From positions 9,041 to 73,040 of the forward strand of contig JAJUGN010000004.1 of the NCBI GenBank assembly GCA_029265975.1: 64,000 nucleotides of DNA. Direction: 5' to 3'. This document shows positions 2,901 to 43,144 of the stretch, piece by piece. The position numbers were made by a program, and so were the translations under genes. How positions within the stretch are numbered: the first letter of the stretch is position 1; every line of letters begins with the position of its first letter. This DNA is from Clostridiales bacterium (lineage in GTDB: Bacteria; Bacillota; Clostridia; Oscillospirales; Oscillospiraceae). Below the pieces are notes generated by a model. That model was not told where the DNA came from and did not search any database. It saw only the letters and a list, made by a program, of their open reading frames with translations.

Positions 2901-2907
2901 CTCTGTT

Positions 2908-6506: not shown

Positions 6507-6532
6507 AAATACCTTCAGAAAAGCAGAAATAT

Positions 6533-6578
6533 AACGGGCCGTTTCGAAATGGAAATCGAAGCGGCCCGTTGGGTTTTT
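6533..6578 (+). terminator. Intrinsic terminator after esterase gene
   Basis: AACGGGCCG ... CGGCCCGTT stem with an inner TTTCGA/TCGAA helix, followed by GGGTTTTT. Confidence 0.6.
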
Positions 6579-6589
6579 AGTTCCGCGTA

Positions 6590-7939
6590 TCAGGAAAACA
6601 GAGCCTGAAGAACAAAGTTCAGCACGAAAAGGGCGGAAGCGACCCAAAGTATCGGGTGCGTGTTCTTGACGTCCTTTTTAGCAATCTTCACGATGCAGTA
6701 GAAAATGAAACCGGCGCCGATTCCGTAGGAAATGTTGTAGCAAAGCGCCATGAAGACGCCGCAAAAAAAGGCTGGTATGGCTTCCTCAAGGTCGTCCCAC
6801 TTGACGTCGATGAAGGAGGACATCATCATTATTCCCACCACTACAAGGGCAGGCGCCGTCGCCGCCATGGGTATCGCGCTGACGAACGTCGCGAGGAAGG
6901 CGCTCAGGATAAAGAGCACGGCGGTTACGACGCTTGTCAGCCCCGTGCGGCCGCCTTCGCTGATGCCGGCTGCGCTTTCGATGTATGTCGTGGTGTTGGA
7001 AGTGCCGAAAATGGCTCCGATGGAAGTTGCGATGGAGTCCGCGAACAGAGCCTTGTCCATCTTGGATTTGAAGCCTGTGCTGTTTTCAAGGGCCCTCTCG
7101 TCCTCCTCGCTGAAGATGCCGCTGCGGCGGCCGGTGCCTATGAAGGTGCCGATTGTGTCAAAGGTGTCGGAAAGGCTGAAAGCGAAAATGGTGACGAGGG
7201 CTATCGGTATTTTGGAGGGATCCGAGAACAGAGAAACAAGACCCGCCTTAGTAAAGATGACCCCGAATGCGGAGGGCAGCGATTTGTACGCGTCCGCGAG
7301 GCTTATGGTGTTTGAAGTCTTGGTGACCCCGACGAATATTCCTATTATGGTAGTCGCGATGATGCCCCAGAGTATGGCGCCCCTCACCTTCATGAGCATC
7401 AGCAGAACAATCAGGAAAAGCCCGACAAGGAAGAGTATGAGCGAGGGCTTGTTGGGCATCGTCATTGCGGGAACCCCTGCCGCAAAGTTAATAAGCCCCG
7501 AGTCAACAAGTCCGATAAATGCTATGAATATGCCTATGCCGCCGCTTATAGCGTGCTGAAGGCTTTTGGGTATAGCCTTGATTATTTCCTTCCTTATCCT
7601 TGTGACCGTTATGAATATGTTTATAAGCCCGCAGATAAAGACCATCGACAGCGCCTGCTGCCAGGTGAATTTCAGACCGAAGCAGACCGTGAACACAAAG
7701 AACGCATTCAGCCCCATGCCGGGCGCCAGAGCGTAAGGCACATTGGCGAAAAGGCCCATGACGAGGGTGCCTACCGCCGAGGCGATGATTGTGGCGAGGA
7801 ACACGGCGCCCCACTCCATGCCCGCCTGGCTCAGGATTGTAGGATTCACAACTATGATATACGCCATTGTGAAGAAGGTAGTGATGCCCGCGATGATTTC
7901 GGTAGAAACGGTTGTTCCGTTTTCCTTAAGCTTGAACAT
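6590..7939 (-). CDS. NCS2/AzgA-family purine (adenine/guanine/hypoxanthine) permease
   Basis: About 450 aa polytopic protein. N-terminus MFKLKENGTTVSTEIIAGITTFFTMAYIIVVNP is typical of the AzgA/PbuG family. Confidence 0.85.
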   Translation of the reverse strand: MFKLKENGTTVSTEIIAGITTFFTMAYIIVVNPTILSQAGMEWGAVFLATIIASAVGTLVMGLFANVPYALAPGMGLNAFFVFTVCFGLKFTWQQALSMVFICGLINIFITVTRIRKEIIKAIPKSLQHAISGGIGIFIAFIGLVDSGLINFAAGVPAMTMPNKPSLILFLVGLFLIVLLMLMKVRGAILWGIIATTIIGIFVGVTKTSNTISLADAYKSLPSAFGVIFTKAGLVSLFSDPSKIPIALVTIFAFSLSDTFDTIGTFIGTGRRSGIFSEEDERALENSTGFKSKMDKALFADSIATSIGAIFGTSNTTTYIESAAGISEGGRTGLTSVVTAVLFILSAFLATFVSAIPMAATAPALVVVGIMMMSSFIDVKWDDLEEAIPAFFCGVFMALCYNISYGIGAGFIFYCIVKIAKKDVKNTHPILWVASALFVLNFVLQALFS

Positions 7940-8043
7940 AATCTTTTCTCCCCGTATCGTATTTGCATAATATTCTAAGCGTTTCCCCAATTTTGAGCAA
8001 TAGTAAATGCGACTTTGTTTTTTGAAGATATTTTGAGGAACTG

Positions 8044-8406
8044 CTAGATTTCATTCCTTATCCTGTCGACGATTATATCCGCAAGACGCCTGTCCGCCCC
8101 AAGCGTTTTTCCCATAGTAATCTTCACGCCGGGGTGCAGGGCCTTGAACTCCTCCAGCTCGGCGGGGATATCCTCCTTTATATGCACTCCCTCAAACAAA
8201 AAATACGGTATCACGCTGATATCGGTAACCCCTTTTTGTATGAGACTCTCAAGCCCCTTTTCAAGATTCCTGTCGCGGAACTGAAGGTACGCTTCCTCCA
8301 CAAGGGCTCCTTCGAGACCCTGCCTTACATATTCCGTGATTTTTTGCATCGTTTTTTCCGTATCGCCCTCGCGGCTGCCGTGCGCCAATAAAAGTATTCC
8401 CTTCAT
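8044..8406 (-). CDS. cbiX: Short CbiX-type sirohydrochlorin cobaltochelatase
   Basis: About 120 aa with LLLAHGSR...VIPYFLFEGVHIKEDIP. It lies directly downstream of cbiO in the same operon. Confidence 0.7.
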   Translation of the reverse strand: MKGILLLAHGSREGDTEKTMQKITEYVRQGLEGALVEEAYLQFRDRNLEKGLESLIQKGVTDISVIPYFLFEGVHIKEDIPAELEEFKALHPGVKITMGKTLGADRRLADIIVDRIRNEI

Positions 8407-8410
8407 ATCT

Positions 8411-9304
8411 TTACACCTTGTCCTTTCGCATATCCTCGCCGGGAGCGCCGCCCCGGCGATTTTCTTCAAACAAATGCTTGATGGTCTTCCGCGCCTGTGA
8501 AATGGTCGAAGCGGTCGAGTCCAGATCGAGGCTGTCCCTGCTTCTCAGGATGCTCATAAGGTGGGTAATCCTCGGAAGGCGCAGGTTGTGCGCCCTCAGC
8601 AAATCGGGGCGTGAAAAAAGCGATTCCGGAGTGCCGCCGAAGATGACTGAGCCGCCGTCCAGCACATAAACTTCGTCGCAGTATAGGGGCACCAGGTCTA
8701 TATCGTGAGTCGAGATAATCACGGTTATTCCGAGTCTCTGCTTTATTTCATCAAGAAGGTTCAGGATTTCGCTTACTCCCTGGGGATCGAGCCCCGCCGT
8801 CGGCTCGTCGAGTATTATGACGGAGGGCTCCATGACCAGTATCCCGGCGATCGCGACGCGCTTTTTCTGGCCGAAGCTTAAGGCGTGCGTCGGTTTGCCG
8901 ACTATGCTCTCTATTCCCGTCTGCTTTACGACAAGCTCGACCCTTCTCCTTATCTCATCCTCCGAGAGACCGAGCTTCATGAGACCGAAGGAAATGTCCT
9001 TGACGACGCTGGAAGAAAAAAGCTGGTCGTCCGGGTCCTGAAAGACGATGCCTATCTTTCGCCTGATTTCAGTCAGGCCGCTTTTGCTGTAGCTTACCTC
9101 TTTCCCCTCGAAAAAGACCCTGCCGCTTTTGGGAGTCAGAACGCCGTTCAGGTTCAAAAAAAGCGTGGACTTGCCGGCGCCGTTTCCTCCGAGTATGGCG
9201 GTCGTTTTGCCGCGTTTTATCGACATGCTGACATTCTTGAGGGCGGGAGCTCCGTCCTCGTATGAGAAACAGAGATCGGAAATTTCTATAATGTTCATTT
9301 TCAA
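8411..9304 (-). CDS. cbiO: Cobalt ECF transporter ATPase CbiO
   Basis: Walker A GGNGAGKST, signature LSFGQKKR, Walker B ILDEP. Start/stop overlap with cbiQ. Confidence 0.9.
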   Translation of the reverse strand: MKMNIIEISDLCFSYEDGAPALKNVSMSIKRGKTTAILGGNGAGKSTLFLNLNGVLTPKSGRVFFEGKEVSYSKSGLTEIRRKIGIVFQDPDDQLFSSSVVKDISFGLMKLGLSEDEIRRRVELVVKQTGIESIVGKPTHALSFGQKKRVAIAGILVMEPSVIILDEPTAGLDPQGVSEILNLLDEIKQRLGITVIISTHDIDLVPLYCDEVYVLDGGSVIFGGTPESLFSRPDLLRAHNLRLPRITHLMSILRSRDSLDLDSTASTISQARKTIKHLFEENRRGGAPGEDMRKDKV

Positions 9305-10071
9305 AGCCTTTCGATCAAGCCTATCGCCGTAAAAGAAACCGCGGCGAGAACGGTCAGCCCCGTGAGAAGAAGGCTCGGCTCCTCCTTTTCGGCGAGATAG
9401 TCGAAGTTGCCTTCAAAACCTCTGGAGTCAAGCGCGAGGCTTATGCGGTCAACGCGCCTGAGAGCCCTTATAAAAACCGTGGTCACAAGCTCCCCGAGCG
9501 AGGCCATGCTGTTTTTTAAGCCTTTGTAGCCTAGACGCGAGGCCTGCGCCGTCCGGATTCTCTGGGCTTCGTCCCAGATTATGAAAATAAAGCGGTAAAT
9601 AAGCTCCATAAGCTCTACAAAAACGCCGGGCGTCCTTCTCCGCAGAAGGGAGAGGAAGGAGTTCATCGGGGTGTTGAGAGAGAAAAAGTAGAGGCATGAA
9701 ACCGCCCCCAAAGACTTCAGCAAAAGGTTTACGCCAAGGCTCAGAGACTGCCGGCTGATACCGAAATAAGAGCCGAAGAGCCTGAAATAAAAAAGCGCCG
9801 CACCGGTGTCCGTTATTTTGTTTATCACTATCGTCACAACTCCGGTAATGAGGAAGGCAAACGGCACCAGCATCAGCTCCAGGTATTTTGAGGGTCGGCA
9901 GCCGCCCAGAAAAAGGGTGGCTGCCGACATTACAGCGATAGTCAGCAGGCTTATGGCATTCGAGCTGAACGCAAGGCAAATAAGCATCAGGCAAACGGAA
10001 AAGAGCAGCTTGCTTGACGCTTTGACGCCCGAGATTTTCGATTGGTATGCGTGTTTGTCTATGCCGCTCAC
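9301..10071 (-). CDS. cbiQ: Cobalt ECF transporter transmembrane (T) component CbiQ
   Basis: Hydrophobic 256 aa protein positioned between cbiN and cbiO with 4-nt overlaps. Confidence 0.85.
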   Translation of the reverse strand: MSGIDKHAYQSKISGVKASSKLLFSVCLMLICLAFSSNAISLLTIAVMSAATLFLGGCRPSKYLELMLVPFAFLITGVVTIVINKITDTGAALFYFRLFGSYFGISRQSLSLGVNLLLKSLGAVSCLYFFSLNTPMNSFLSLLRRRTPGVFVELMELIYRFIFIIWDEAQRIRTAQASRLGYKGLKNSMASLGELVTTVFIRALRRVDRISLALDSRGFEGNFDYLAEKEEPSLLLTGLTVLAAVSFTAIGLIERL

Positions 10072-10355
10072 TTTTTTTCGCTCGCCTTGTGCCTTTCCGA
10101 AAGCTTTCCGAAGCCGAAGCCGATAATTAAACCGCCTATCGAGGCCTGAAGCGCGAAAAGAAGAGATTCGACCTCGCCGCTCGGGGGCTCGTAAATCGAT
10201 TTGAACCAGGGCTCGTATTCGGGCCTGATTTCGGATATGACGGATTCGGCCTTATCGTCCGCTCCGCCGTACTCTCCCTTCACGATTGCGAGGGGCACGA
10301 CGCATATAAGCAGCGCAAGAGCCAAAAGAAGGAGATTTTTTTTCCAAAGCTTCAT
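10068..10355 (-). CDS. cbiN: Cobalt transport protein CbiN
   Basis: About 95 aa with two TM segments (MKLWKKNLLLLALALL... and ...GGLIIGFGFG). It sits in the canonical position after cbiM. Confidence 0.8.
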   Translation of the reverse strand: MKLWKKNLLLLALALLICVVPLAIVKGEYGGADDKAESVISEIRPEYEPWFKSIYEPPSGEVESLLFALQASIGGLIIGFGFGKLSERHKASEKK

Positions 10356-10368
10356 TTTACAGCCCTCC

Positions 10369-11145
10369 TTAATCCGCTTTAAGCGCCTGAAGCTCGGCGT
10401 TGCTGTACTTTTTGAGTCCGTTATAAACAATGACGGTCAAAATGCCTTCCGCAACGGCGAGAGGCAGCTGCGTAAAGGCGAAAATGCCAAGAAATTTCGC
10501 CGCCGAAACGAAGAAGCCGCCGCCCGAATCTGGGAAGGCCGCTCCGAGTTGGAGCGAAGTCACGATATATGTAAAGATGTCGCCAATAAAAGCCGCTATG
10601 AAAACCGAAACGGTGCTTTTTACGCCCAGCTTCTTAAGCAGGCGGTAGACGAAATAAGAGGCAAAGGGACCGGCTATGCCCATCGAGAAAGTGTTTGCCC
10701 CGAGGGTGGTCAGCCCGCCGTGAGCCAGCAGTATGGCCTGAAAAAGCAGAACGATGACGCCGATCACCGACATGGCGGTGGGCCCGAACATGATCGCGCC
10801 CAGTCCGACTCCCGTCGGGTGGGAGCAGCTCCCTGTCACGGAAGGCAGCTTAAGCGCGGAAAGAACGAAGGCAAAAGCGCCGCACATCGCGAGCAGAAGC
10901 AGCATTCTTGAATTTCCGCTTATCTTTTTCTTAATGGAGAAGAAGCCTTTCACGACGAAAGGGATGCAAATCGCGCCCCAGGCGACGGCCCAGCCGGGAG
11001 GGAGAAAGCCCTCCATTATGTGCATCGCTTTTGCGCCCATAACGGGAAAAGCCAGAACAACCGCCAAAACAACGGCGGCTTTCTGCATGTATTTTTCAAT
11101 TAAAACGCTGTTTTTCGATTTTGACGCTCCGGTTTTTAAGCGCAT
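10369..11145 (-). CDS. cbiM: Cobalt ECF transporter substrate-capture component CbiM
   Basis: [10 protein letters not shown] motif after a signal-like N-terminus. GGGAGG RBS 5 nt before the ATG at 11145. Confidence 0.9.
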
Positions 11146-11156
11146 TTTTACCTCCC

Positions 11157-11188
11157 GGAAAAAACAGCACCCTCCGTCGGGAAGGTGC
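11157..11188 (-). terminator. Intrinsic terminator forming the expression platform of the cobalamin riboswitch
   Basis: Minus strand reads GCACCTTCC-CGAC-GGAGGGTGC followed by TGTTTTTT, immediately 5' of the cbiM RBS. Confidence 0.6.
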
Positions 11189-11235
11189 GTCAATTCCGGC
11201 CTTCGATTGTTTGCCATTGAAATCGACCCTCCTTA

Positions 11236-11428
11236 TGCTTCGTAAGGTTTGAGTTTTCTCGGACGAAAGATGAGCGACATCTCCCGCCCCGGTTCCGGCT
11301 CAGTATCCTGACTAATGCTTCGTCGCGCGGGCCGCCTTCCCGGTTTCATCCAGTGGCATAATGGCCGTAGCTCGGCAAATACAGTTGCGAGACAGCACGG
11401 GATTCTCACCCGTTTCCTGTAACCGAAT
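11236..11428 (-). promoter_or_regulatory. Cobalamin (B12) riboswitch aptamer
   Basis: Minus strand reads ...GGAAACGGGTGAGAATCCCGTGCTGTCTCGCAACTGTA... and B12-box-like GCCACTGG...CCGGGAAGGC. It lies upstream of cobalt uptake genes. Confidence 0.85.
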
Positions 11429-11433
11429 CCGCA

Positions 11434-11463
11434 AATTATAATGTTTTGCAAAACATTATAATT
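11434..11463. repeat. Perfect 30-bp palindrome carrying TATAAT on both strands (operator or divergent -10 candidate)
   Basis: AATTATAATGTTTTGCAAAACATTATAATT is its own reverse complement. It lies just upstream of the riboswitch 5' end. Confidence 0.5.
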
Positions 11464-11610
11464 ATACATTAATTATTGAAAGAGTCAAGGCGTTTTTAAG
11501 TAAAAACGGCTTTCGGAGCGCCCGCGCGCCGAAATATTAAGAGCTTATGGATACCGGCTTATAAAACGGAGGCCTTTATTATGCCTAATGTACATATATG
11601 TTTTTACGGC

Positions 11611-11639
11611 TTCAAAAACCGCGGATGCCGTGATAAAAT
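11611..11639 (+). promoter_or_regulatory. Candidate sigma-A promoter of glycyl radical enzyme 1
   Basis: TTCAAA - 17 nt - TAAAAT, about 110 nt upstream of the ATG at 11750. Confidence 0.35.
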
Positions 11640-11749
11640 GTACCAAAATCGAGTGCAAACGCAATTAAAAATATATGTTTTGAATAACGCCCGCCGAAGT
11701 GTGAGGGAAGGCCTTCCGACTTCGGGAGACCAGGAAAGCGAGGAATAAC

Positions 11750-14152
11750 ATGAAAGAGATGCTTGAACGCATAGAGAGGATTAAAAAAAGAGTCGTTGTC
11801 GATCACTATCCGATCTGCATCGAGAAATTCCGCATAGCGATGGATATGATAGAGGAGACCAAAAACGACCCCGTAATTGTCCGGAGAGCGAAGATACTGA
11901 GCGCGACGCTTGAGCGGGTGCCCATAGCCATCGCGCCCGACGAGCTTATCGTCGGCATAGGCGCTTCAAAACCCATGGGGCTTGAAATCGACCCCGATTA
12001 CGGAATCTGGACTCAGGACGAGATAGATTCGCTCATCGAGGACGGCTACCAGATGGATCCGCAGGATGTGATAGATCTCCAGGAGCTTAACAAAAAATAC
12101 GATCCCCCCACGCTTATCGGGCAGATGGGAAACATCGTATATGAGAATGAACGCATAATTTCACTGCTTAAGGCGGGAATAATACTCCCGCCGTGGAAGG
12201 ATAAGCAGGAGGGCAGGGGCGTCGGCGGCGGCTACTGCCAGTCCGGCCTCGGCCTCGGGCCTTCGCTTATTCTGCTTTGCATAGACTACACAAAGATGCT
12301 GCACCTCGGCACCAACGCGATGATCAGCCAGGCCAGGGAGGAGAGGAGCAGGCTGCGCTTCGACGAGAAGGGAGCCGTCGCCAAGTTCAATTATTACAAT
12401 TCCGTGATCATGTGTCTGGAGGCCGCTAACAAGCTCGCGCTGCGCTATTCCGCCCTCGCCAGGGAAATGGCGGAAAAGGAGGCGGACCCGAAGCGCCGGG
12501 CGGAGCTTTTGCAGATAGCCGAAAACTGCGCCTGGGTGCCCATGAATCCCGCCAGAACCTTCCGGGAGGCCGTGCAGTGCTTCTGGTTCCAGTTCCTCAT
12601 GCTCAGCCCCTCTACGACGCTGCCGGGAGCGCGCTTCGACCAGTACATGTACCCTTACTACAAGGCGGACATCGAAGCCGGGCGCATAACGAGAGACGAG
12701 GCTCTGGAGCTGCTGTGCCTGCTGCGCCTTAAGGACATGGAGCTTAACCGCACCTCGGGAAAAAATAACCGCAAGAAGAACGCGGGAATGGCCAAGTGGC
12801 ACAACTTCACCATCGGAGGAGTCGACAGGCACGGCAACGACGCGACAAACGACATAACATATCTGCTGCTTGACGCGGCGGCCATAACAAAGGTGCCGCA
12901 CCACACGCTCACGCTCCGAGTACACTCCGGGACGCCGGAAAAGCTGATGCTGAGGGCTCTCGAGGTGGTCAGGATGGGCATGGGAATGCCGGCCTTTGTG
13001 GGCGACGAAAGCTACATAAAGTGCTTTACCTCCCGCGGACTGCCCGTCGAGGACGCAAGGGAGTATGTAATGACAGGATGCCTTGACGCGAACGTGCCCG
13101 GCCTTTCACGCACCGGCCCGGTGCCGATGATAACCATTCCGCTCATTTTTGACATATTCAGGCATAACGGCGTCAACGTAAAAAACGGAGAGCTCTGCGG
13201 CATACGCACGGGCGAGTTCACGGAGTTTGAAACCTACGAGGAGCTTTTTGAAGCCTTCAGGAAGCAGCTCGACTACTGTCTGCGCATCGTGGGGGAAAAG
13301 AACAACATAGAGCTTACCATCACTCAGGAGCTGCTGCCCGACCCGATACGTTCCGCCACGATGTGGCGCGGCATAGAATCCGGGGAGGACACCTTCCGCC
13401 GAACCATGCCGTTTGAAAACGGAGCGGTGCTCAATCCCATAGGCATGGTGAACGTGGGGGATTCTCTCGCGGCAATAAAGAAGCTGGTATTCGACGAGAA
13501 AAAGTACACGCTAAAGGAGCTTAACGACGCGCTTGAAGCCAACTGGGTCGGATTTGAGGATATGCAGAGGGATTTCCTAGCTGCTCCTAAGTTCGGCAAC
13601 AACGACGACTATGTGGATAAGATTGTAGCCGAATGCTATCAGATGTTCTGCGATATCGCGGCGACCATGCCGACGATACTTGGCGGCGTTCACATACCTA
13701 CGGGCATATCAATCACGTCCCATCAGCCGGGCGGAGGACTCACGGGCGCTACTCCGGACGGCCGCAAGGCGGGGGAAATACTTGCAGACGGCACGATGTC
13801 TCCGATGCACGGAATGGACGAACACGGCCCGACGGCGGTGCTGCAGAGCGCCATGAAAATAAATCAGGATCCCTTCCAGGCCACGCTGCTCAATATGAAA
13901 TTCCACCCCTCGGCGCTGAAGACCGAGGAGGATCTTATAAAGCTCGCCAGCATGATAAAGGTATATCTCACGAACGGCGGAAAGCACATACAGTTCAACG
14001 TAGTAGATAAGACAACGCTGCTGGCGGCGAAGTCCGATCCCAAGACCTACCGCGACCTCATAGTGCGCATAGCGGGATACAGCGCATATTTCGTGCAGCT
14101 GAACGAGCAGATGCAGGACGAGGTAATAGCCCGCGTCGAGCACAGGCTGTAA
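11750..14152 (+). CDS. Glycyl radical enzyme, PFL2/dehydratase-like clade, substrate unknown (paralogue 1)
   Basis: 800 aa. C-terminal glycyl radical motif LIVRIAGYSAYF. Cys loop VMTGCLDANVPG. GAGGAA RBS. Confidence 0.9.
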   Translation: MKEMLERIERIKKRVVVDHYPICIEKFRIAMDMIEETKNDPVIVRRAKILSATLERVPIAIAPDELIVGIGASKPMGLEIDPDYGIWTQDEIDSLIEDGYQMDPQDVIDLQELNKKYDPPTLIGQMGNIVYENERIISLLKAGIILPPWKDKQEGRGVGGGYCQSGLGLGPSLILLCIDYTKMLHLGTNAMISQAREERSRLRFDEKGAVAKFNYYNSVIMCLEAANKLALRYSALAREMAEKEADPKRRAELLQIAENCAWVPMNPARTFREAVQCFWFQFLMLSPSTTLPGARFDQYMYPYYKADIEAGRITRDEALELLCLLRLKDMELNRTSGKNNRKKNAGMAKWHNFTIGGVDRHGNDATNDITYLLLDAAAITKVPHHTLTLRVHSGTPEKLMLRALEVVRMGMGMPAFVGDESYIKCFTSRGLPVEDAREYVMTGCLDANVPGLSRTGPVPMITIPLIFDIFRHNGVNVKNGELCGIRTGEFTEFETYEELFEAFRKQLDYCLRIVGEKNNIELTITQELLPDPIRSATMWRGIESGEDTFRRTMPFENGAVLNPIGMVNVGDSLAAIKKLVFDEKKYTLKELNDALEANWVGFEDMQRDFLAAPKFGNNDDYVDKIVAECYQMFCDIAATMPTILGGVHIPTGISITSHQPGGGLTGATPDGRKAGEILADGTMSPMHGMDEHGPTAVLQSAMKINQDPFQATLLNMKFHPSALKTEEDLIKLASMIKVYLTNGGKHIQFNVVDKTTLLAAKSDPKTYRDLIVRIAGYSAYFVQLNEQMQDEVIARVEHRL

Positions 14153-14170
14153 CATAACCCTGAAAGGAAA

Positions 14171-14202
14171 GGGAGCTCCCGGAGAATTTTCCGGGAGCTC
14201 CC
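14171..14202. terminator. Bidirectional terminator between the two convergent GRE genes
   Basis: Perfect 12-bp stem GGGAGCTCCCGG / CCGGGAGCTCCC with an 8-nt loop. Confidence 0.8.
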
Positions 14203-14222
14203 TCTTAATACATTTTTGCGGC

Positions 14223-16613
14223 CTAGACCACGTTTGAGGTGCGCTTGATTATCTCGTCCTGGACCGGCCTTGTGAGCAGGGTGAAGTATGTGCTGTACCC
14301 GGCTACGCGGACGATAAGATCCCTGTAGTCCTGGGGCTTTTCCTGGGCGGCCATGAGAACCTTGTTGTCAACGACGTTGAACTGGATGTGCTTTCCGCCG
14401 TTTGTGAGATAAATCTTAACGAGAGAGGCAAGCTTCATAAGGTCCTCCTCGGTCTTCAGCGCCGAGGGGTGGATTTTCATGTTGAGAAGCATCGCGTTGA
14501 AGGGGTCCTGATTTATTTTCATAGCGCTTCTGAGAGAAACGGTCGGCCCGCTTGTGTCCGTTCCCTGCATCGGGGAAACCGCGCCGTCGGAGAGCGTCTC
14601 GCCTTTTTTGCGCCCGTCTGGGGTTGCGCATGTATAGGAACCGCCGGGCGCGTGGGAGGTGATGGATATGCCGGTGACTCTCGGCGGCTCGCCGTAAATG
14701 CCCCTGAAGGTGTTCGCGCTGTCGGCCCAGAACTGGTAAAGGTCGGCGGCGAGATCGTCCGCCACGTCGATGCCGTTGCCGTATTTGGGAGCCTCAAGGC
14801 AGAGCGCGCGAATATCCTCGTAGCCTTCCCAGTTTGCTTCTATGGCCTTGTAGAGGTCCTCCATGGTGAACTTTTTCTGCTCGAAGACAAGGGTCTTGAC
14901 GGCTGCCATGGAGTTGGCCACGTTTATTACGCCGACAGGGTTCAGCATTGAGGCGTTTTCGTAGGGCATTTTGCGGTCCATCATGTCACGGCCGGACTTT
15001 ATTCCGTCATATGTAAACGCGGAATGGACGACGTCGTTCTGCAGCGCCCTCGTGCAGCGGCAGAGTATGTTGTGCTCCTCGTTGTACATGCTCATAAAAT
15101 GGTAAAGCTGCTTTTTGAACGCCGCGTAGAAATCCTCAAAGGTCTTGAAATCCTTCATTTCGCCGGTCGCAGGGCCTATCTGCTCGCCAGTGGCCGTATT
15201 CACGCCGTTGTGCATCGTGATATCCAGCACTCTCGGCACTATGAACATGCCGAGCGCGTTTATGCGGGACTTTCCGGGCAGGTTGAGGTCAAGGCAGCCG
15301 GCAAGGGCGTAATCGCGCGCCTCCTCGAGAGGAACCCCCTGACCGACAAGCCCGCTTATATAGCTCTCGTCGGAGACGAAGGCGGGCATTCCAATACCGG
15401 TTCTGACCAGCTCCATGGCCTTTTTCATGAGCTCGTCGGGAGTGTCTTTGTTCACGCGGACCGTGATCGTGTACTGGGGCGTTCTGACTTCGTTAGCCGC
15501 CTCGATTATGAGATAGGAAAGCTCGTTCGTGGCGTCCTTGCCGTTCCTGTCGACGCCGCCGATAAGGAAGTTGTGCCATCTCGCCATGCCGGCCCACTTG
15601 TCTCGCTGCTGCTTGCCGCCGTTTACAAAATTGAACTGCATGATCTTGATGCGAAGGCATTCTATGAGCTCCAAAGCCTCGTCGCGCGTAAGCTCGCCGC
15701 TCTCGATGTCTTTTTTGTAATATGGGTACATTATCTGGTCGAAGCGCCCGCCGGGGGTGACTCCGTGAGCTATCATCATCCAGTAGAACCAGAAGGCCTG
15801 CATCGCGTCCCGGAAATTGCGCGCCGGGTGCTCGGCTATCCAATGGCAGCTGTCAGCCATGCGCAGGAGCTCGGCCTTGCGGCGCTGGTCTGAAGTGGAC
15901 TTTGCCTTTTCCATGCAGACGTCGCCGTAACGGTGGTACATGCGGACCATTGCGCCGAGGGCTATTATAACGGCCTGCAGGTACTGGGATTTGTCGAAGG
16001 ATTCGCTGTCGGTGTAACGAAGGTTCCTGAGCTCCTCCTCCGCGTCGTCGAGGGTCGCCTTGACTCCGTATGAGATTATCCTGGCATAGTCCGGAACAAA
16101 GAAGCTGAGTCCTATGCCCATGCCCCAGCCGAAGCCGGCTCCGCCGCCGCCGCGGCCCTTCTGCTTATCCGTCCAGGGCGGGCAGAGCACGCCGGACCTG
16201 ATGAAGGGCCACAAGCGCGCGTCGTCGTAAAAAGTGCCCTGCCATTCATAAAACTGGCGGCCCTTTCCCGCCCAGAAGGAGTCGAGCTCGCGCAAAGCCT
16301 TCCGGTCCTCCGGGTCGATGGTGAAGTTGCCCTGCAAAAGGCCGTCCAAATCCTCGTCGTCCCAGAAGGGGCCCCAGCAGGAGGCCTCCATTCCCATGGG
16401 TTTTGAAGCGACGTTCCCCACGATCAGCTCGTCTTCGTCCACATAAATGGTTCTCTTGTCAAGGTAGTTTGCGGTTTCGTAGGCTCTCTGAAGTATGCTC
16501 GGAAGCCCCTCGTGAGCGCTCCATGCCTCAATGACAAGCTTCGCTTTCTCCGCGCATATGGGATACTTATCCACATTCAGCGCCGCCAACATTCGTTTGA
16601 TCCTGTCGGTCAT
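14223..16613 (-). CDS. Glycyl radical enzyme, PFL2/dehydratase-like clade, substrate unknown (paralogue 2)
   Basis: About 796 aa. LIVRVAGYSTYF glycyl motif. Cys loop ALAGCLDLNLPG. Colinear similarity to 11750-14152. The RBS context GAAAGCGAGGAATA is shared with paralogue 1. Confidence 0.9.
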   Translation of the reverse strand: MTDRIKRMLAALNVDKYPICAEKAKLVIEAWSAHEGLPSILQRAYETANYLDKRTIYVDEDELIVGNVASKPMGMEASCWGPFWDDEDLDGLLQGNFTIDPEDRKALRELDSFWAGKGRQFYEWQGTFYDDARLWPFIRSGVLCPPWTDKQKGRGGGGAGFGWGMGIGLSFFVPDYARIISYGVKATLDDAEEELRNLRYTDSESFDKSQYLQAVIIALGAMVRMYHRYGDVCMEKAKSTSDQRRKAELLRMADSCHWIAEHPARNFRDAMQAFWFYWMMIAHGVTPGGRFDQIMYPYYKKDIESGELTRDEALELIECLRIKIMQFNFVNGGKQQRDKWAGMARWHNFLIGGVDRNGKDATNELSYLIIEAANEVRTPQYTITVRVNKDTPDELMKKAMELVRTGIGMPAFVSDESYISGLVGQGVPLEEARDYALAGCLDLNLPGKSRINALGMFIVPRVLDITMHNGVNTATGEQIGPATGEMKDFKTFEDFYAAFKKQLYHFMSMYNEEHNILCRCTRALQNDVVHSAFTYDGIKSGRDMMDRKMPYENASMLNPVGVINVANSMAAVKTLVFEQKKFTMEDLYKAIEANWEGYEDIRALCLEAPKYGNGIDVADDLAADLYQFWADSANTFRGIYGEPPRVTGISITSHAPGGSYTCATPDGRKKGETLSDGAVSPMQGTDTSGPTVSLRSAMKINQDPFNAMLLNMKIHPSALKTEEDLMKLASLVKIYLTNGGKHIQFNVVDNKVLMAAQEKPQDYRDLIVRVAGYSTYFTLLTRPVQDEIIKRTSNVV

Positions 16614-16695
16614 CGTATATTCCTCGCTTTCTGTTCCGTGTTTTTCAAAATACAACAAGTCTGAACTCAGGTGCGTATTGGTCTTTTTCAGCTAA

Positions 16696-16723
16696 AGTAT
16701 ATCATTCCGAGGCCCGTTTTCAA
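16696..16723 (-). promoter_or_regulatory. Candidate promoter of glycyl radical enzyme 2
   Basis: Minus strand reads TTGAAA - 16 nt - TATACT, downstream of the terminator that follows the PrpD-like gene. Confidence 0.35.
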
Positions 16724-16893: not shown

Positions 16894-16939
16894 AAACCCC
16901 GCTCCGAGGGATTGTTCCGAAAGGCCGAAGGCGGGGTTT
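16894..16939 (-). terminator. Intrinsic terminator after MmgE/PrpD-family gene
   Basis: Minus strand reads AAACCCCGC ... GCGGGGTTT followed by ATTATTT. Confidence 0.55.
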
Positions 16940-16959: not shown

Positions 16960-18339
16960 TCAGAGCAGCTCCGCGAGCTGAGAAATGTTCTCAAGCTTTT
17001 CAAGATTTTTCACGGCAAGCTCAAGCCTATTAAGTTCGTCCGCGCTTCTGGGGTAAAGCGCGCCGGCGGCGCAGGCGCGCATTTTGGCTGCCATGCCCTC
17101 GGCATTCATAGGGTTTTCCGGTGTGCCGTAAGGCGATGAAACCATTTTGCTGAAAACTCCGCGCTCCGTAAATATTGTCGTTTCGGCCCATGTCTCCCTG
17201 CCCCTGCCCCAGTCCTCGCATATCTCGTGCGTAAACTTTTTGGTCAGGTCAAGGATGCGCGGGTCGGCATATTTTTCGGCGGAAAAGCTCGAGAGCGTTA
17301 CGTCGCCGTTTATTATGGCCTCCGCGACGGTAAACGGTATGCTGAACTTCGCTATTATGGAGGCAGTGGGAGACTTTCTGATTTCCTCGGGCTCAAGCAG
17401 TATGCGGTTGAGCTGCGCCGCCTTTACATGAATGCGGGTGATTTCTTCAGGCGCGATTTTATGCTCTTTTACGAGCTGCAGAGCGGCGTCTATGCAGGAA
17501 TGCGTTCCGAAGCAGCTCGGCCATGCCTTGAAGGTGAGCTTCTCGCACTCAAAGTCCCTGCCGAGACCTTCAAGCACGCGCGACTTTGTGTATTCTCCCC
17601 GCAGATATGCTTGATAGAAGCCGTTTTTGCCCTCCAGAGGCTCCGCAAAGCCCTTCAGCCCGCGCTTCGCCATATAGCAGGACAAAATCGCCGACTTCGA
17701 GGTGAAGCTCTCACGGACCGAGCGCACTACGGTGTCGGAGTTGTTCAGCAGCTCCGAGCTGCAGGTCGCCTGGCACAGATTAAAGGAAAAGGCGTTCACC
17801 GTTTCCTCCGGGGACAGGTCGAGCAGCCTGGATACCGCGGCGACGGCGCCGAACGAGGAGTAGATGGTGGGGATATAAAAACCGTAGGAGGTCGTGTTTA
17901 TATCGGCGCCCATGGCTATGCGGCAGGCGGTCTCGCTTCCCACCACCAGGGCCGTCAAAAATTTCTTTCCGCCGATATTTCCGAGCTTTTCGGCCACCGC
18001 AAGCGCCGCCGGGAAGGAGGAGGAGTTTGAATGTATGGTGCTCCTGCTGTGCGTGTCCCCGAAGTCGAGCGAATGAGCCATGGAGCCGTTGGCGAAGGCG
18101 GCCCAGGGCGCGGGAAGCTTTTTTCTGAAGCCTATAACCGTCGCCTCCGGCCTGCCGCCTGCCGACAGCTCCTCGGCGAGCTCAACCATTTCCCGGCAGC
18201 CGTCGCCGAGCGTCGCCGCGCCGAGCGTTATCGCGATCGCGTCCATGACGGATTTTTTCTGCGTTTCGATCACAGATGCGGGGATATCCTCAAACTGGGT
18301 TTTAGAGACAAATTCGGCCAGCTGATAAGACAGTCCCAT
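16960..18339 (-). CDS. MmgE/PrpD-family protein (2-methylcitrate dehydratase-like fold; function unknown)
   Basis: 459 aa. N-terminus LAEFVSKTQFEDIPASVIETQKKSVMDAIAITLGA is typical of MmgE/PrpD. Confidence 0.85.
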   Translation of the reverse strand: MGLSYQLAEFVSKTQFEDIPASVIETQKKSVMDAIAITLGAATLGDGCREMVELAEELSAGGRPEATVIGFRKKLPAPWAAFANGSMAHSLDFGDTHSRSTIHSNSSSFPAALAVAEKLGNIGGKKFLTALVVGSETACRIAMGADINTTSYGFYIPTIYSSFGAVAAVSRLLDLSPEETVNAFSFNLCQATCSSELLNNSDTVVRSVRESFTSKSAILSCYMAKRGLKGFAEPLEGKNGFYQAYLRGEYTKSRVLEGLGRDFECEKLTFKAWPSCFGTHSCIDAALQLVKEHKIAPEEITRIHVKAAQLNRILLEPEEIRKSPTASIIAKFSIPFTVAEAIINGDVTLSSFSAEKYADPRILDLTKKFTHEICEDWGRGRETWAETTIFTERGVFSKMVSSPYGTPENPMNAEGMAAKMRACAAGALYPRSADELNRLELAVKNLEKLENISQLAELL

Positions 18340-18442: not shown

Positions 18443-20452
18443 CTATACCTTGAAGCAGGCGGCCTGATGCCCGTTGCCGTAGTCCGAAAGCGGCGGGGCG
18501 GAGCGCCTGCACCGCTCGTCGGCGTGGGGGCAGCGGGGATGGAATACGCAGCCGTCGGGACGGTTTATAAGGCTGGGGACCTCGCCCTCGATGCGGGTTC
18601 TCACGCGCTCCTTTTCGACAATCGGGTCGGGGATGGGTATGGCCGACAGCAGGGCCTTCGTATATGGATGAAGAGGCTTTTCGTAAAGCTCGTTCCAGGG
18701 GGAGATCTCCACCACCCTGCCGAGATACATTACCACTATTCTGTCGCTTATATGGCGCACGACGGAAAGGTCGTGCGCGATGAACAGATACGTGAGCCCG
18801 CGCTTTGCCTGAAGGTCTATCAGGAGGTTTATTATCTGGGCCTGGATCGACACGTCGAGCGCGGATATTGGTTCGTCGCAGATGACGAAGCTCGGTTCGG
18901 ACGAAAGGGCGCTCGCTATGCTGAGGCGCTGCCTCTGGCCGCCAGAAAACTCATGGGGGACCCTGTTCTTAAGAGCGGGATCAAGCCCTACGGCCATAAA
19001 AAGCTCATCAACTTTCCGCGAATACTCCTCCGGCGTTTTTGCAAGCCTGTGGGCCTTTATCGCCTCGCCCACTATGCTTCCCGCGCTCTGGCGCGGGTCG
19101 AGAGAGCCGAAAGGGTCCTGGAAAATAAACTGGACCTCTCGGCGGACGTCCTTAAGCCTGCGCTCCGGAAGCTTTGAAATATCCCTTCCGTTGAAGATTA
19201 TGCTGCCGCCGGTTACGTCGTAAAGGCGGAGTATCGTTTTCGCGAGAGTGGTTTTGCCGCAGCCGGATTCCCCTACCAGACCGAGGGTTTCGCCCCTGTA
19301 TATCTCGAAGCTCACGTCGTCGAGCGCTTTAACGTCAGCTATCTTCCTGCGGGTTACGCCTTTGAAGACCGGAAAGTATTTCTTTACGTTTTTCAGCTCA
19401 AGAATCTTCTCGGAAGAGATTCTTTTAGTTAAAACGCTTTCGGCGGCATCGGGCCGCCTATTTTTCAGCTCCTCGGGCCTGAACCAGCAGGCGGAGGCGT
19501 GAGCAGGGGAATATTCGATATAGGGAGGCATGGAGTCCTCGGAGCACTTTTCGGCTGCGAAGGGGCAGCGTTCCCAAAAGGGGCAGCGCCCGCTTTTTTT
19601 CGCGGGATTGGGCGGCAAGCCGTCTATTGCGACAAGACGCCTTGACTTGTCGCTGTCAAGCCTGGGTATCGCTTTGAGGAGGCCCATGGTATAAGGGTGG
19701 CTCGTTTCGCGGAATATTTCCTCGCTGGTGCCCCGCTCGACGATATTGCCGGCATACATGACGTATACGCGCTGGGCGTACCTCGCGACTATGCTTAGGT
19801 TGTGGGTGATTATAATAAGAGCTGTGTTTGTTTTTTTGACTATCTCCCGCAGAAGCTCCAGTATCTGCTCCTGGGTGGTGACATCAAGCGCGGTTGTGGC
19901 CTCGTCGGCGATGAGTATCTTTGGGCTGCTGGCCATAGCCATCGCTATCATTATTCGCTGGCGCATTCCGCCGGAAAACTGCGTCGGATAATAGTTTATC
20001 CGGCTTTCACCGTCCGGAATGCCCACAAGGCGGAGAAGCTCTATCGCGCGCTCTCGCGCCCTGGCCCTGGAATAGCCGAGGTGCAGCATTACGCTCTCCT
20101 CTATTTGCTGCCCCACTGTAAGCACGGGGTTAAGCGAGGTCATTGGCTCCTGAAATACCATGGATATACCGCCGCCGCGGACCTTTCGTATCTCGCTGCT
20201 TTTAGTGTCATAAGAGAGGATGTTTTCGCCCTGAAATATTGCTTCGCCGCCGGCGATTTCGCCGGGCGGCATTTCTATAAGCTTCAAAACGCTCATCATG
20301 GTCACGGATTTTCCGCTGCCGGACTCTCCGACTATGCCGATTATTTCGCCCTCGTCCACATAAAGGCTCGCATCGTCGACAGCGCGCATAACGCCTTCTC
20401 GCATGCGGAAAAGGGTCTTAAGATGCCTTATTTCCAATAAATGCTCGGACAT
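18443..20452 (-). CDS. Fused double ATPase of a peptide/opine-type (Dpp/Opp-like) ABC importer
   Basis: Two ABC cassettes (GESGSGKS...LSGGMRQR...; GESGCGKTT...FSGGQRQR) with C-terminal oligopeptide-type Cys motifs. Confidence 0.9.
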   Translation of the reverse strand: MSEHLLEIRHLKTLFRMREGVMRAVDDASLYVDEGEIIGIVGESGSGKSVTMMSVLKLIEMPPGEIAGGEAIFQGENILSYDTKSSEIRKVRGGGISMVFQEPMTSLNPVLTVGQQIEESVMLHLGYSRARARERAIELLRLVGIPDGESRINYYPTQFSGGMRQRIMIAMAMASSPKILIADEATTALDVTTQEQILELLREIVKKTNTALIIITHNLSIVARYAQRVYVMYAGNIVERGTSEEIFRETSHPYTMGLLKAIPRLDSDKSRRLVAIDGLPPNPAKKSGRCPFWERCPFAAEKCSEDSMPPYIEYSPAHASACWFRPEELKNRRPDAAESVLTKRISSEKILELKNVKKYFPVFKGVTRRKIADVKALDDVSFEIYRGETLGLVGESGCGKTTLAKTILRLYDVTGGSIIFNGRDISKLPERRLKDVRREVQFIFQDPFGSLDPRQSAGSIVGEAIKAHRLAKTPEEYSRKVDELFMAVGLDPALKNRVPHEFSGGQRQRLSIASALSSEPSFVICDEPISALDVSIQAQIINLLIDLQAKRGLTYLFIAHDLSVVRHISDRIVVMYLGRVVEISPWNELYEKPLHPYTKALLSAIPIPDPIVEKERVRTRIEGEVPSLINRPDGCVFHPRCPHADERCRRSAPPLSDYGNGHQAACFKV

Positions 20453-20471
20453 TTTATGCTCCTTTCCGCCG

Positions 20472-21320
20472 TCACAGCGCTCCGCGCAGACGCGGATCGA
20501 GCGCGTCGCGCAGCCCGTCGCCGAATATGTTGAAGGCCAGCACGAGGATAATTATTGCGAAGCCGGGCGCCAGCGCAAAAAGGGAGTTTGTCGTCAGATA
20601 TCTGTACCCGTCGTTCACCATGGCGCCCCAGGAGGCGGTGGGCGGGAGTATGCCGGCTCCGAGGAAGCTCAGCGCGGCTTCGGCAAGAATCGTGTTGCCT
20701 ATGCTCTGAGTCATGATCACAATCATCGGGGAAAGACAGTTGGGGAGAATGTGCCTCAGCATGGTGACGAAGCTCCTGTTCCCGCGAATCCTGCTGGCGG
20801 AAACATAGTCCAGGTCGCGCACGGTGAGCACCTGGCCGCGCATCATCCGGGCGAAAGGCGGGATGTTAGAGACCGCAAGCACCACGGTAAGCATGGTCAT
20901 GCTGCGCCCGAGTATGGCCACAAGGGCGAGCGCGAGGATAAGCGGGGGGATGGCCATCATCGCTTCGACTATCCTCATGATGACGTTGTCCACCCATCCT
21001 CCGAAATAACCGGATAAAAGGCCGAAGACCGTTCCGACTATGCCGGACATTATAACAGAGAAAATTCCTACGATAAAGGCTATCCTGGTGCCGTAGACTA
21101 TGCGGCTGTATACGTCGCGCCCGTACTGGTCGGTGCCTAGCCAGTGCCTTGAGGAAGCGCCCTGAAGAAATTCTGCCAGGTTCTGCTGGTTGGGGTCGTG
21201 AGTCGCAAAAACGGGTGAGGCCACCGCGCAGAGCAGGAAGAAAAGTATGACGAGCGCGGAAACAACCACAAGCTTCCGGGAAAACAAGGTCCGGAAGAAA
21301 ATTTTCGCTTTGTCGTTCAT
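20472..21320 (-). CDS. ABC importer permease (DppC/OppC-like)
   Basis: Polytopic protein with a binding-protein-dependent transport motif. The ATG at 21320 lies just after the upstream permease stop. Confidence 0.85.
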   Translation of the reverse strand: MNDKAKIFFRTLFSRKLVVVSALVILFFLLCAVASPVFATHDPNQQNLAEFLQGASSRHWLGTDQYGRDVYSRIVYGTRIAFIVGIFSVIMSGIVGTVFGLLSGYFGGWVDNVIMRIVEAMMAIPPLILALALVAILGRSMTMLTVVLAVSNIPPFARMMRGQVLTVRDLDYVSASRIRGNRSFVTMLRHILPNCLSPMIVIMTQSIGNTILAEAALSFLGAGILPPTASWGAMVNDGYRYLTTNSLFALAPGFAIIILVLAFNIFGDGLRDALDPRLRGAL

Positions 21321-21331
21321 CTCCGCGCCTC

Positions 21332-22276
21332 CTATTCCAGCCTGATGCGGGGGTCCGCATAAGCGTACGCTATGTCTACAAGAAGATTGCATATACATGT
21401 AACCGCTGCGAGAAGCAGCAGGCTTGTCTGCAAAGTTGTATAATCGCGGTTGTTGAGCGACATCACCATTACCTGCCCGAGGCCGGAAATGTTGAATATC
21501 GTTTCGATGATTGCCGAGCCGCCGAAGCTGTTGCGAAGCGTGAGACCGATGAGCGTGAGTATCGGTATGAGAGCGTTTTTGACGGCGTGGCCGTAAATGA
21601 TTTTAGATTCCTTCAGCCCTTTGGATCTCGCTGTGCGTATGTAGTCCTGCCGGATAACCTCCAGCATGCTGGAGCGCGTCTGTCTTGCGTATATGGCGAC
21701 GCCGCCGACGCTCATGCATATGACAGGCATTATCGTCTGCCTTAAGCTCAGTACCGGGTTCTCCCAGGGGAGGGTGAAGCCGTGCACCGGAAGCCATTTC
21801 AGCTTGAGCCCGAAGATGAGTATGAGGATCACCGCCAGCCAGAACGTGGGCATTGCTATGCCTATGTTTGCAAGCACCGTTATCACGGAATCGGTCTTCG
21901 AGCCGCGCCTTACCGCCGTCACGATCCCGAAAAATATGCCCAAAATCACGCTGAAAACGGCGGAAACTATGCCCAGATAAAGAGTCGTCGGAAGGCGGTT
22001 CATGACCACTTCCGCAACCGTCTGCCGGAAGTAATAGGAATATCCCAAATCTCCCTTAAGTATGTTGCCGAGCCAGAAGAAATACTGCTCGACAAGAGGC
22101 CTGTCAAGTCCCATCGTGTGATATACCTGGTCGTGGTACTCCTTCGGGATCTCCGAGCCGAGCATGGCGTAAACGGGATCGCCCGGGACAAGGTGTATAA
22201 GCGAAAAAGCGATCACGGATATGATAAGGAGGATCACGACGGTCTGAAAAAGCCTGTTTATTATGTATTTAGCCAT
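21332..22276 (-). CDS. ABC importer permease (DppB/OppB-like)
   Basis: MAKYIINRLFQTVVILLIISVIAFSLIHLVPGDP is the canonical DppB/OppB N-terminus. Confidence 0.9.
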   Translation of the reverse strand: MAKYIINRLFQTVVILLIISVIAFSLIHLVPGDPVYAMLGSEIPKEYHDQVYHTMGLDRPLVEQYFFWLGNILKGDLGYSYYFRQTVAEVVMNRLPTTLYLGIVSAVFSVILGIFFGIVTAVRRGSKTDSVITVLANIGIAMPTFWLAVILILIFGLKLKWLPVHGFTLPWENPVLSLRQTIMPVICMSVGGVAIYARQTRSSMLEVIRQDYIRTARSKGLKESKIIYGHAVKNALIPILTLIGLTLRNSFGGSAIIETIFNISGLGQVMVMSLNNRDYTTLQTSLLLLAAVTCICNLLVDIAYAYADPRIRLE

Positions 22277-43130: not shown

Positions 43131-43144
43131 AGAGCATCGAAGAT

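Follow-up and report, generated by a model that had tools for sequence, protein, structure and literature searches.

A convergent pair of predicted glycyl radical enzymes with Cys-x-Asp loops in a Clostridiales genome

The characterized glycyl radical enzymes (GREs) that catalyze 1,2-eliminations or isomerizations have a Cys-x-Glu (CXE) loop. According to a recent review (Drennan and Andorfer groups, June 2026), this motif is kept in all six C-O eliminases, in CutC, in the three C-S lyases and in the three GRE isomerases, with the glutamate hydrogen-bonding the substrate, and a Cys-Cys pair is limited to PFL and TdcE. The review also gives the functional roles of His164 and Glu435 of glycerol dehydratase (GDH), and a Cys-x-Asp (CXD) loop is absent from its text. 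Here we analyze two convergent genes for putative GREs with CXD loops, GRE1 and GRE2, in a 64,000-nucleotide stretch of DNA from a Clostridiales bacterium of the Oscillospiraceae (GenBank assembly GCA_029265975.1, contig JAJUGN010000004.1, positions 9,041 to 73,040 of the forward strand; below, the window). An earlier note, made by a model from the letters of this DNA, had drawn attention to the pair.

Past GRE discoveries exposed host-relevant gut chemistry, such as the formation of trimethylamine from choline, the use of hydroxyproline and the release of sulfite and H2S from isethionate. Among the described systems, GDH of C. butyricum (1R8W) and propanediol dehydratase (PD; 5I2G, 9RCO) share with the pair the full-length PFL2 architecture with its 10-stranded barrel, a single catalytic Cys at a hairpin tip, an RVAGYS-type glycine loop, and RFDQ and TPDGR motifs. 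The pair differs from them in sequence (31-33% identity), in having Asp for Glu435 and in a Gly-rich insertion of 10-15 residues in place of the GVGH164 segment. No microcompartment genes are found nearby, and the neighbours of related GREs are carboxylate carriers and CoA-transferases, not aldehyde-processing enzymes. The entry 9RCO, named 'glycyl radical protein', was considered as a characterized relative and rejected in that role, as it is a GRM3 propanediol dehydratase.

CutC (5A0U, 5FAU, 9F3W) gives similar scores and a similar fold, and also has a Cys-x-acid loop followed by a P/S-G-K/R turn, but the CutC loop reads GCVEPQKSGR and the GREs described here lack the cut-cluster context. 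The hydroxyproline-type GREs (HypD 6VXC, HypG 8ID1, HpzG 8IOF, HplG 7VUA) act on a carboxylate-bearing substrate, and in their pathways epimerases supply stereospecific GREs, a logic that may recur here through MmgE/PrpD and PGA_cap (MslH-like) neighbours; however, they all keep CXE and are 28-29% identical to the pair. The X-succinate synthases (BSS 4PKF, MASS 9O8U) have the GRE fold and combine dicarboxylate (fumarate/succinate) chemistry with subsequent CoA-transferase and beta-oxidation genes, as may apply here. Unlike them, the pair has no accessory subunits, carries an invariant acidic residue after the Cys and takes a separate position in the tree, with 27% identity.

Catalytic residues and family placement

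Both predicted proteins contain a PFL-like domain (PF02901, E 1e-154 and 1e-162) and a Gly_radical domain (PF01228, E 1e-30) according to Pfam. They are 48% identical and colinear across 797 residues, with 5 gaps. The description of the two as paralogous proteins of about 800 residues with C-terminal RIAGYS and RVAGYS motifs is thus confirmed, and both are assigned to the GRE superfamily, with PFL2-type architecture. An AlphaFold 2 (AF2) model of GRE1 (predicted local distance difference test score, pLDDT, 89.5; predicted template modelling score, pTM, 0.91) places Cys444 at the tip of a beta-hairpin formed by strands 440-442 and 446-448. By Foldseek, the model matched 1R8W, 9RCO, 5I2G and 5A0U with a template modelling (TM) score of 0.91 and 28-33% sequence identity; HypD and others likewise superposed. 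The best sequence matches, to GDH and CutC, had E values of about 1e-136. Cys444 of GRE1 and Cys440 of GRE2 align with Cys433 of GDH, the finger-loop Cys.

The loops TGCLDANVPG and AGCLDLNLPG, noticed before, were found again in the two proteins. Both contain Cys-Leu-Asp, and therefore depart from the CXE motif of 1,2-eliminases and isomerases. HMMER alignments of GRE2 to solved structures were gap-free and of high confidence through the segment ARDY..GC(V/L)(E/D), with Asp442 under Glu435 of GDH and under the equivalent Glu of CutC, PD and HypD. The GDH sequence was rebuilt from the HMMER output; because His164, Cys433, Glu435 and Gly763 match the published numbering, the residue map is valid. 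By these alignments, the Asp of the CXD loop is the homologue of the Glu that GRE eliminases and isomerases use in catalysis; this was the point of the comparison with CutC, HypD and GDH proposed in the earlier note.

How unusual an Asp is at this position depends on the reference set. It had been supposed that all characterized non-PFL GREs carry Cys-x-Glu, which holds for the eliminases and isomerases covered by the June 2026 review, but not for arylacetate decarboxylase 7E7L, with its loop GCVL. Uncharacterized GRE representatives in a library clustered at 50% identity have T, L, H, S, N, R and more at the Glu position, so that a residue other than Glu is unusual only relative to the studied enzymes.

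Beyond the loop, the diol-binding set of GDH is not kept. Ser282, Tyr339, Asp447 and Tyr640, which we take from the 1R8W literature to be the diol-binding residues, correspond in GRE2 to Gly, Trp, Ala and Thr, respectively, and His164 to Phe, although the alignment is uncertain at this last position. In GRE1, pLDDT is low at residues 156-159, and the Gly-rich insertion to which they belong is the least confident part of the AF2 model.

For family placement, homologues were collected by an HMMER scan of 1.84 billion representatives, aligned with MAFFT, and used for a neighbour-joining tree of 136 representatives. GRE1 and GRE2 fell into a monophyletic clade of 15 leaves (13 representatives at 50% identity and the two queries). 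Asp was present at the CXD position in 14 of the 15 leaves, versus 1% of the outgroup. According to their loops, members can be divided into three paralogue types, termed A (GCLDAN, as in GRE1), L (GCLDLN, as in GRE2) and V (GCVDGN). Arg454 (GRE1 numbering) is invariant across the three types and present in 13/15 clade members, versus 3% of the outgroup; Arg551 is clade-specific as well, at a position where 79% of other GREs have Gly, and so are Arg326 and Trp350, the latter at the position of GDH Tyr339. In the multiple alignment of representatives, an insertion of the form PPW(K/T)D(K/R)..G.G.GGG replaces the GxGH164 segment of diol dehydratases. The clade signature thus consists of the loop GC[LIV]D..[LIV]PG.[ST]R, the insertion PPW...G.G.GGG, and Trp350 and Arg551, and GRE1 and GRE2 carry all of these elements. 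Judged by sequence, the two belong to a coherent, unstudied GRE clade with the catalytic Glu swapped for Asp.

Scores against family models agree with this placement. TIGR01774 (PFL2/glycerol dehydratase subfamily) was missed, with 560.4 and 543.6 bits versus a cut-off of 678.2. For the more specific models, the scores of GRE1 and GRE2 were 494/481 bits for CutC (TIGR04394, cut-off 1050), 459/502 for HypD (NF043068, 1100), 499/496 for HpsG (1000), 425/425 for HpfG (1000), 420/426 for PRK09983 (1109), 450/480 for IAD (1100) and 368/391 for HPAD (1150), and PFL (TIGR01255, 994) reached only 108 and 123 bits. Identity to every solved GRE is 27-33%, all being roughly equidistant. By both tree and NCBIfam cut-offs, therefore, the pair is placed within no characterized GRE family, a question that the earlier note had put to a phylogeny or similarity network.

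The clade is large. Clusters at 90% identity that match with E <= 1e-50 to 1e-100 number in the thousands, and the best matches in the protein collection are 97% (GRE1) and 89% (GRE2) identical. Most of the genes come from gut and rumen samples, where their carriers are chiefly uncultured members of the Lachnospiraceae, Oscillospiraceae and other Clostridia; environmental anaerobes are outliers, and farther type-L relatives occur in Geosporobacter, Dethiobacter, Deltaproteobacteria and Spirochaetes. Among the cultured carriers are Clostridium sp. MCC353, chh4-2 and OM02-18AC, Youngiibacter fragilis, Geosporobacter ferrireducens and Hominifimenecus microfluidus. Public annotation gives them no names other than 'hypothetical protein', 'pyruvate formate lyase family protein' and 'formate C-acetyltransferase'. 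Literature searches, including searches for GREs paired with PucR, with CoA-transferase in Lachnospiraceae or with MmgE/PrpD, and for DUF4125 and DUF4037, found no paper that characterizes the clade.

Two representatives stood out during this survey. P0140, in the sister group of the clade, has GALS instead of the GC.. loop, and hence no catalytic Cys, together with RLGGGS at the glycine motif, and P0136 combines a GCLG loop with the glycine motif RIGGCS. They may be non-canonical or aminoacyl-radical-type enzymes.

Conservation of the pair and activation

The GRE1 orthologue in a related metagenome-assembled genome (MAG; locus L001) is 97% identical to GRE1 at the protein level and 88% at the DNA level, with a dN/dS of 0.022. 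This locus is syntenic with window positions 1685-14144 at ~84% nucleotide identity, and synteny stops exactly at the GRE1 stop codon. GRE2 and the genes for the MmgE/PrpD-family protein and the ABC transporter that follow it in the window (Table 1) are absent from L001, and the L001 genes downstream of GRE1 have no homologue anywhere in the window. A 48-kb Logan contig (L058) keeps the convergent pair as one 4.86-kb block of 78% nucleotide identity, with orthologues 89% (GRE2) and 90% (GRE1) identical and a different perfect hairpin between the stop codons. Upstream of the pair, this contig has a type-V paralogue as well as a PucR regulator. The conservation of the pair in L058 and the low dN/dS argue for an inherited unit under selection, and not for a decaying remnant.

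The earlier note had stressed that no activase gene accompanies the pair. In the window, only one open reading frame (ORF) of at least 100 codons contains a CX3CX2C motif (44265-45521), and it encodes HemW (TIGR00539, 307 bits versus a cut-off of 205), as had been suspected. Searches of the window by tblastn with activases from related loci gave no match, and no activase was found within 10 kb in L001 and L058. A PFLE/PFLC-type activase, as used by GDH and PD, would nevertheless be needed in the wider family. In 14 of the first 25 loci, clade GREs are accompanied by an activase of ~310 residues (GPGIR..F.KGCPLRC.WCANPES), which scores 351 bits with TIGR02494 (cut-off 174) and reaches no equivalog. 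Loci in which the GRE block has 4 kb or more of sequence to either side were counted as well-flanked (n=15). Among these, 8 have a canonical activase within 10 kb, directly adjacent in several cases. L004, L033 and L059 are examples of loci with an adjacent clade activase. One activase often accompanies 2-4 GRE paralogues in a locus, and solitary clade GREs exist elsewhere, too (L031, L009, L016).

The missing activase is therefore a feature of this lineage (window, L001, L058) and not of the clade. Most simply, it would mean that the activase gene lies at another place in the genome and that activation occurs in trans. The absence of the gene was correctly noticed, but it does not seem to make GRE1 and GRE2 unusual, and the orphan aspect is weak.

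Gene neighbourhoods and proposed function

Upstream of GRE2, the window encodes an MmgE/PrpD-family protein. Its nearest structures are iminodisuccinate (IDS) epimerase (E 2e-30) and cis-aconitate decarboxylases, not true PrpD, and it falls below all PrpD equivalog cut-offs. A dicarboxylate substructure of four carbons is what every characterized MmgE/PrpD enzyme binds or acts on, and two of these enzymes epimerize or isomerize substituted succinates (PMC12290011). For the window protein, epimerase, isomerase or decarboxylase activity towards a substituted succinate is probable. A gene of this family lies directly upstream of a type-L GRE in the window and in L037, L042 and L047, the last three of which share the order MatC-PrpD-GRE-L, and the family is also found beside other clade paralogues (L007, L023).

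Among the well-flanked loci, the recurrent neighbours, common to all three GRE types, are a PucR-type regulator (10/15), a MatC/CitMHS dicarboxylate- or citrate-type carrier (9/15) and a single-chain family I CoA-transferase related to FadX/YdiF (6/15). Proteins with TPR, DUF4037, DUF4125, PGA_cap, HGD-D and URO-D-like domains are rarer; the best NCBIfam match of the PGA_cap protein is the epimerase MslH, well below cut-off. A minimal cluster on a Youngiibacter-like contig has MatC, PGA_cap and PucR on one strand and a type-A GRE with its activase on the other. Locus L026 adds an acyl-CoA dehydrogenase, EtfB, EtfA with a ferredoxin domain, and an AMP-ligase. Locus L059 (Geosporobacter ferrireducens CP017269, 1971070-1993460) contains an activase, two type-L-like GREs and two MatC carriers, flanked by a FadB-like fusion, a thiolase, CoA-transferases of families I and III, HGD-D, PGA_cap and a sigma-54 activator. 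G. ferrireducens is cultured and has a complete genome, which makes it a good experimental entry point.

In four loci (L004, L019, L020, L057), genes for a CoA-transferase, a DUF4037 and a DUF4125 protein stand together beside the clade GREs (for example L057, 4271-7935). The trio may be a conserved module; the same three families are reported to be expressed side by side with a ring-cleavage operon for limonene in a MAG of the Syntrophobacteraceae, as neighbours within it (PMC12583861).

In the best explanation overall, to which we assign a probability of about 0.65, GRE1 and GRE2 are functional paralogues under strong purifying selection, a CXD-clade pair that would be activated in trans and serve as eliminases or isomerases on an imported carboxylate feeding CoA-dependent catabolism. 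Activation of each enzyme would be post-translational and would depend on a canonical radical-SAM GRE activase with its gene at another place in the genome. As substrate we propose an organic acid taken up by the cell. It would most likely be a di- or tricarboxylate that contains a succinate-like moiety and bears a hydroxy, amino or alkyl substituent, and the MmgE/PrpD-family neighbour of GRE2 would epimerize or otherwise pre-process it. A 1,2-elimination or isomerization would follow, and the product would enter a CoA-transferase-dependent, beta-oxidation-like catabolism. The three paralogue types probably divide related substrates or stereoisomers among themselves.

Chemistry of the eliminase or isomerase type is favoured by the acidic residue that is rigorously kept at the CXE position. 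As for the substrate class, the biochemistry of the MmgE/PrpD family, the recurrent neighbours and the extra clade-specific arginines together make an anionic, probably succinate-like di- or tricarboxylate our best guess, a tentative one with slightly less than even odds. We claim no specific substrate (tartrate, hydroxycitrate, methylsuccinate, quinate or others), as the data do not discriminate between them.

Several observations weigh against this explanation. Most loci lack adjacency to PrpD, and three of those that have it, L037, L042 and L047, are close relatives of one another. In the window, GRE2 seems to be transcribed separately from the PrpD-family gene, given the terminator-like hairpin and the promoter-like site that lie between them, so that the case for co-function there rests on the conserved adjacency elsewhere. 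Of the typical neighbours, only the PrpD-family gene is present in the window; PucR, MatC, activase, CoA-transferase, DUF4037 and DUF4125 are all absent from it. One clade representative (P0129) has Pro rather than Asp. Finally, non-radical enzymes can handle the alpha-protons of carboxylates, so that the need for a radical enzyme in the case of hydroxy-dicarboxylates is not obvious.

The source annotations ('formate C-acetyltransferase') and the Pfam PFL-like domain would, on their own, suggest pyruvate or 2-ketobutyrate formate-lyases, but the loops have a single Cys instead of the Cys-Cys pair that defines PFL and TdcE, the TIGR01255 scores lie far below cut-off, and PFL structures match the C-terminal region only, which leaves this assignment next to no chance. 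It is also very improbable that the two are divergent members of a characterized eliminase or isomerase family (glycerol/propanediol dehydratase, CutC, HypD/HypG/HpzG, IslA/IseG/HpsG/HpfG, HplG, PflD/YbiW) in which Asp is a neutral replacement for Glu. Although the best sequence and fold matches are indeed GDH, PD and CutC, the roughly equidistant identities, equivalog scores at about half of the cut-offs and the loss of the GDH substrate-binding residues do not single out any of these families, and the Asp is fixed across a deep clade and not sporadic. That GRE1 and GRE2 are inactive, decaying orphans would fit the lack of a linked activase in the 64 kb and within 10 kb in L001 and L058. We find this hardly credible: both ORFs are intact with every catalytic motif kept, the selection data and the conserved pair in L058 contradict decay, both genes have strong ribosome-binding sites (RBSs) and promoter-like sites, and other clade GREs are solitary as well, one activase commonly serving several paralogues.

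Two further alternatives take up the carboxylate context. Radical decarboxylation of carboxylic acids, by the logic of HPAD, PAD, IAD and AAD, would agree with the carboxylate substrate implied by the neighbours, and characterized decarboxylases do vary two positions after the Cys (C-V-L in 7E7L; June 2026 review). However, the pair is no closer to decarboxylases than to eliminases, neither gene has an HPAD-type small-subunit gene beside it, and downstream CoA-transferases imply a carboxylic acid product, which fits only if the substrate has more than one carboxylate; we regard decarboxylation as improbable. Formation or breakage of C-C bonds on succinate skeletons, by fumarate addition as in X-succinate synthases or by a B12-independent rearrangement or lyase reaction, with the product passed to the PrpD-family epimerase and a bbs-like CoA-transferase/beta-oxidation set, has several points in its favour: the MmgE/PrpD enzymes next to the GREs work on succinate substructures, carriers for dicarboxylates are often encoded nearby, and L026 and L059 contain family III and family I CoA-transferases, acyl-CoA dehydrogenase with ETF, a FadB-like protein and thiolase. 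On the other hand, small accessory-subunit genes do not recur beside the GREs and the space between GRE1 and GRE2 is too short for one, X-succinate synthase-like representatives lie outside the CXD clade, and an invariant acidic residue suits acid/base chemistry on a polar substituent better than addition to a hydrocarbon. This alternative is unlikely.

Elimination or isomerization thus remains the preferred assignment. A bolder reading, which we consider rather doubtful, is that the clade carries out an undescribed GRE reaction on substituted succinate-type di- or tricarboxylates (for example radical cleavage of a C-C or C-N bond by a lyase, or rearrangement of the carbon skeleton without B12), fed by an MmgE/PrpD epimerase and drained by CoA-dependent beta-oxidation. 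If true, Clostridia of gut and rumen would ferment organic acids by an unrecognized route, in which the several paralogues of a locus cover related substrates or stereoisomers.

The clade, which changes the residue that every studied eliminase or isomerase uses as base, is a tractable target, being abundant, almost wholly unannotated and often present with 2-4 paralogues per locus. With a substrate identified, many 'PFL family' genes of gut and rumen metagenomes, a large block, would gain a function, and the replacement of Glu by Asp in thiyl-radical elimination chemistry would be put to the test. A new pathway by which organic acids from diet or host are used anaerobically might also come to light. 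The collected neighbourhoods provide candidates for the activase partner, the regulator, the transporter, the epimerase-like partner, the CoA-dependent downstream steps and the substrate class.

Coordinates and local signals

The features of the pair and of the adjacent genes are collected in Table 1. The two genes are convergent, with stop codons 70 nt apart. For GRE2, a longer ORF variant with a TTG start reaches 16658 in the mechanical ORF list.

Table 1. Features of the GRE pair and adjacent genes (window positions)
Feature	Position	Strand	Remarks
GRE1	11750-14152	+	800 aa; CXD clade type A (GCLDAN.PG / RIAGY); ORF call, Pfam, AF2
GRE1 Cys444-Leu445-Asp446 in TGCLDANVPG	13079-13087	+	Predicted thiyl-radical Cys, and Asp at the general-base Glu position; aligned to GDH C433/E435
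GRE1 Gly776 in RIAGYS	14075-14077	+	Predicted radical glycine; aligned with GDH G763
GRE1 Arg454	13109-13111	+	Clade-specific; 8 residues after Asp446
GRE1 residues 147-162, PPWKDKQEGRGVGGGY	12188-12235	+	Clade-specific Gly-rich insertion where GDH has GVGH164
GRE1 RBS context, GAAAGCGAGGAATA	11734-11747	+	2 nt before start codon
GRE1 promoter candidate	11611-11639	+	Sigma-70-like, TTCAAA-17-TAAAAT, extended -10 TG; consensus match only
Intergenic hairpin, candidate bidirectional terminator	14170-14203	both	Stem AGGGAGCTCCCGGA / TCCGGGAGCTCCCT between stop codons
GRE2	14223-16613	-	796 aa from ATG after RBS; CXD clade type L (GCLDLN.PG / RVAGY)
GRE2 Cys440 in AGCLDLNLPG	15294-15296	-	
GRE2 Asp442	15288-15290	-	
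GRE2 Arg450	15264-15266	-	Equivalent of GRE1 Arg454
GRE2 Gly772 in RVAGYS	14298-14300	-	
GRE2 RBS context, same 14-mer GAAAGCGAGGAATA	16618-16631	-	4 nt before start codon
GRE2 promoter candidate	16696-16723	-	Sigma-70-like, TTGAAA-16-TATACT, TG; consensus match only
Terminator-like hairpin after PrpD-family gene	16895-16913	-	Consensus match only
MmgE/PrpD-family protein	16960-18339	-	459 aa; Pfam; upstream of GRE2
Opp/Dpp-type ABC importer	18443-25297	-	Upstream of PrpD-family gene; GRE link uncertain
Fused ABC ATPase	18443-20452	-	669 aa; two ABC_tran and two oligo_HPY domains
ABC permeases	20472-22276	-	
SBP_bac_5 protein	22353-24038	-	
ORF heading the ABC operon	24059-25297	-	412 aa; no Pfam, NCBIfam or PDB sequence match

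The shared RBS context described earlier is an identical 14-mer before both genes. The exact 14-mer occurs at only these two sites in the window, with 0.06 chance matches expected when one mismatch is allowed. It is also present upstream of the GRE1 orthologue in L001, and in no other clade locus. Sigma-70-like boxes are located ~110 nt upstream of both genes and are loosely alike. A common 5' leader or riboswitch was considered and rejected, as the ~300-nt leaders are unalignable beyond the RBS and the promoter-like boxes.

A bidirectional terminator with a perfect 12-bp stem had been proposed between the genes. A hairpin is indeed present between the stop codons, but its perfect stem has 14 bp, and 15-16 pairs are formed when the sequence is folded. 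The folding energies on the two strands are -32.5 and -34 kcal/mol, with z scores of -5.6 and -5.3; the U-tracts are mediocre to weak.

The link between the Opp-type ABC system of the window and the GREs is uncertain. In L058, the GRE1 orthologue is flanked by a different SBP_bac_5 ABC system, the binding protein of which is 24% identical to that in the window. The fused ATPase has counterparts in L058 that are encoded by two separate genes.

The sole Rfam match near the GREs is a cobalamin riboswitch (11280-11442, minus strand, 84 bits), on the strand opposite to GRE1, which heads the cbiM/N/Q/O operon for a cobalt ECF transporter (8411-11217, minus strand). Riboswitch and operon account for most of the long intergenic region 5' of GRE1 and are unrelated to the GREs. 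Farther away, three tandem c-di-GMP-I riboswitch aptamers (42675-43229, plus strand, Rfam scores of 60-64 bits each) precede an ORF of 284 codons (43318-44172) that has no NCBIfam match. The segment 25432-27735 (plus strand) encodes a B12-dependent class II ribonucleotide reductase with a C-terminal TSCPD domain, in a region that is non-syntenic with L001.

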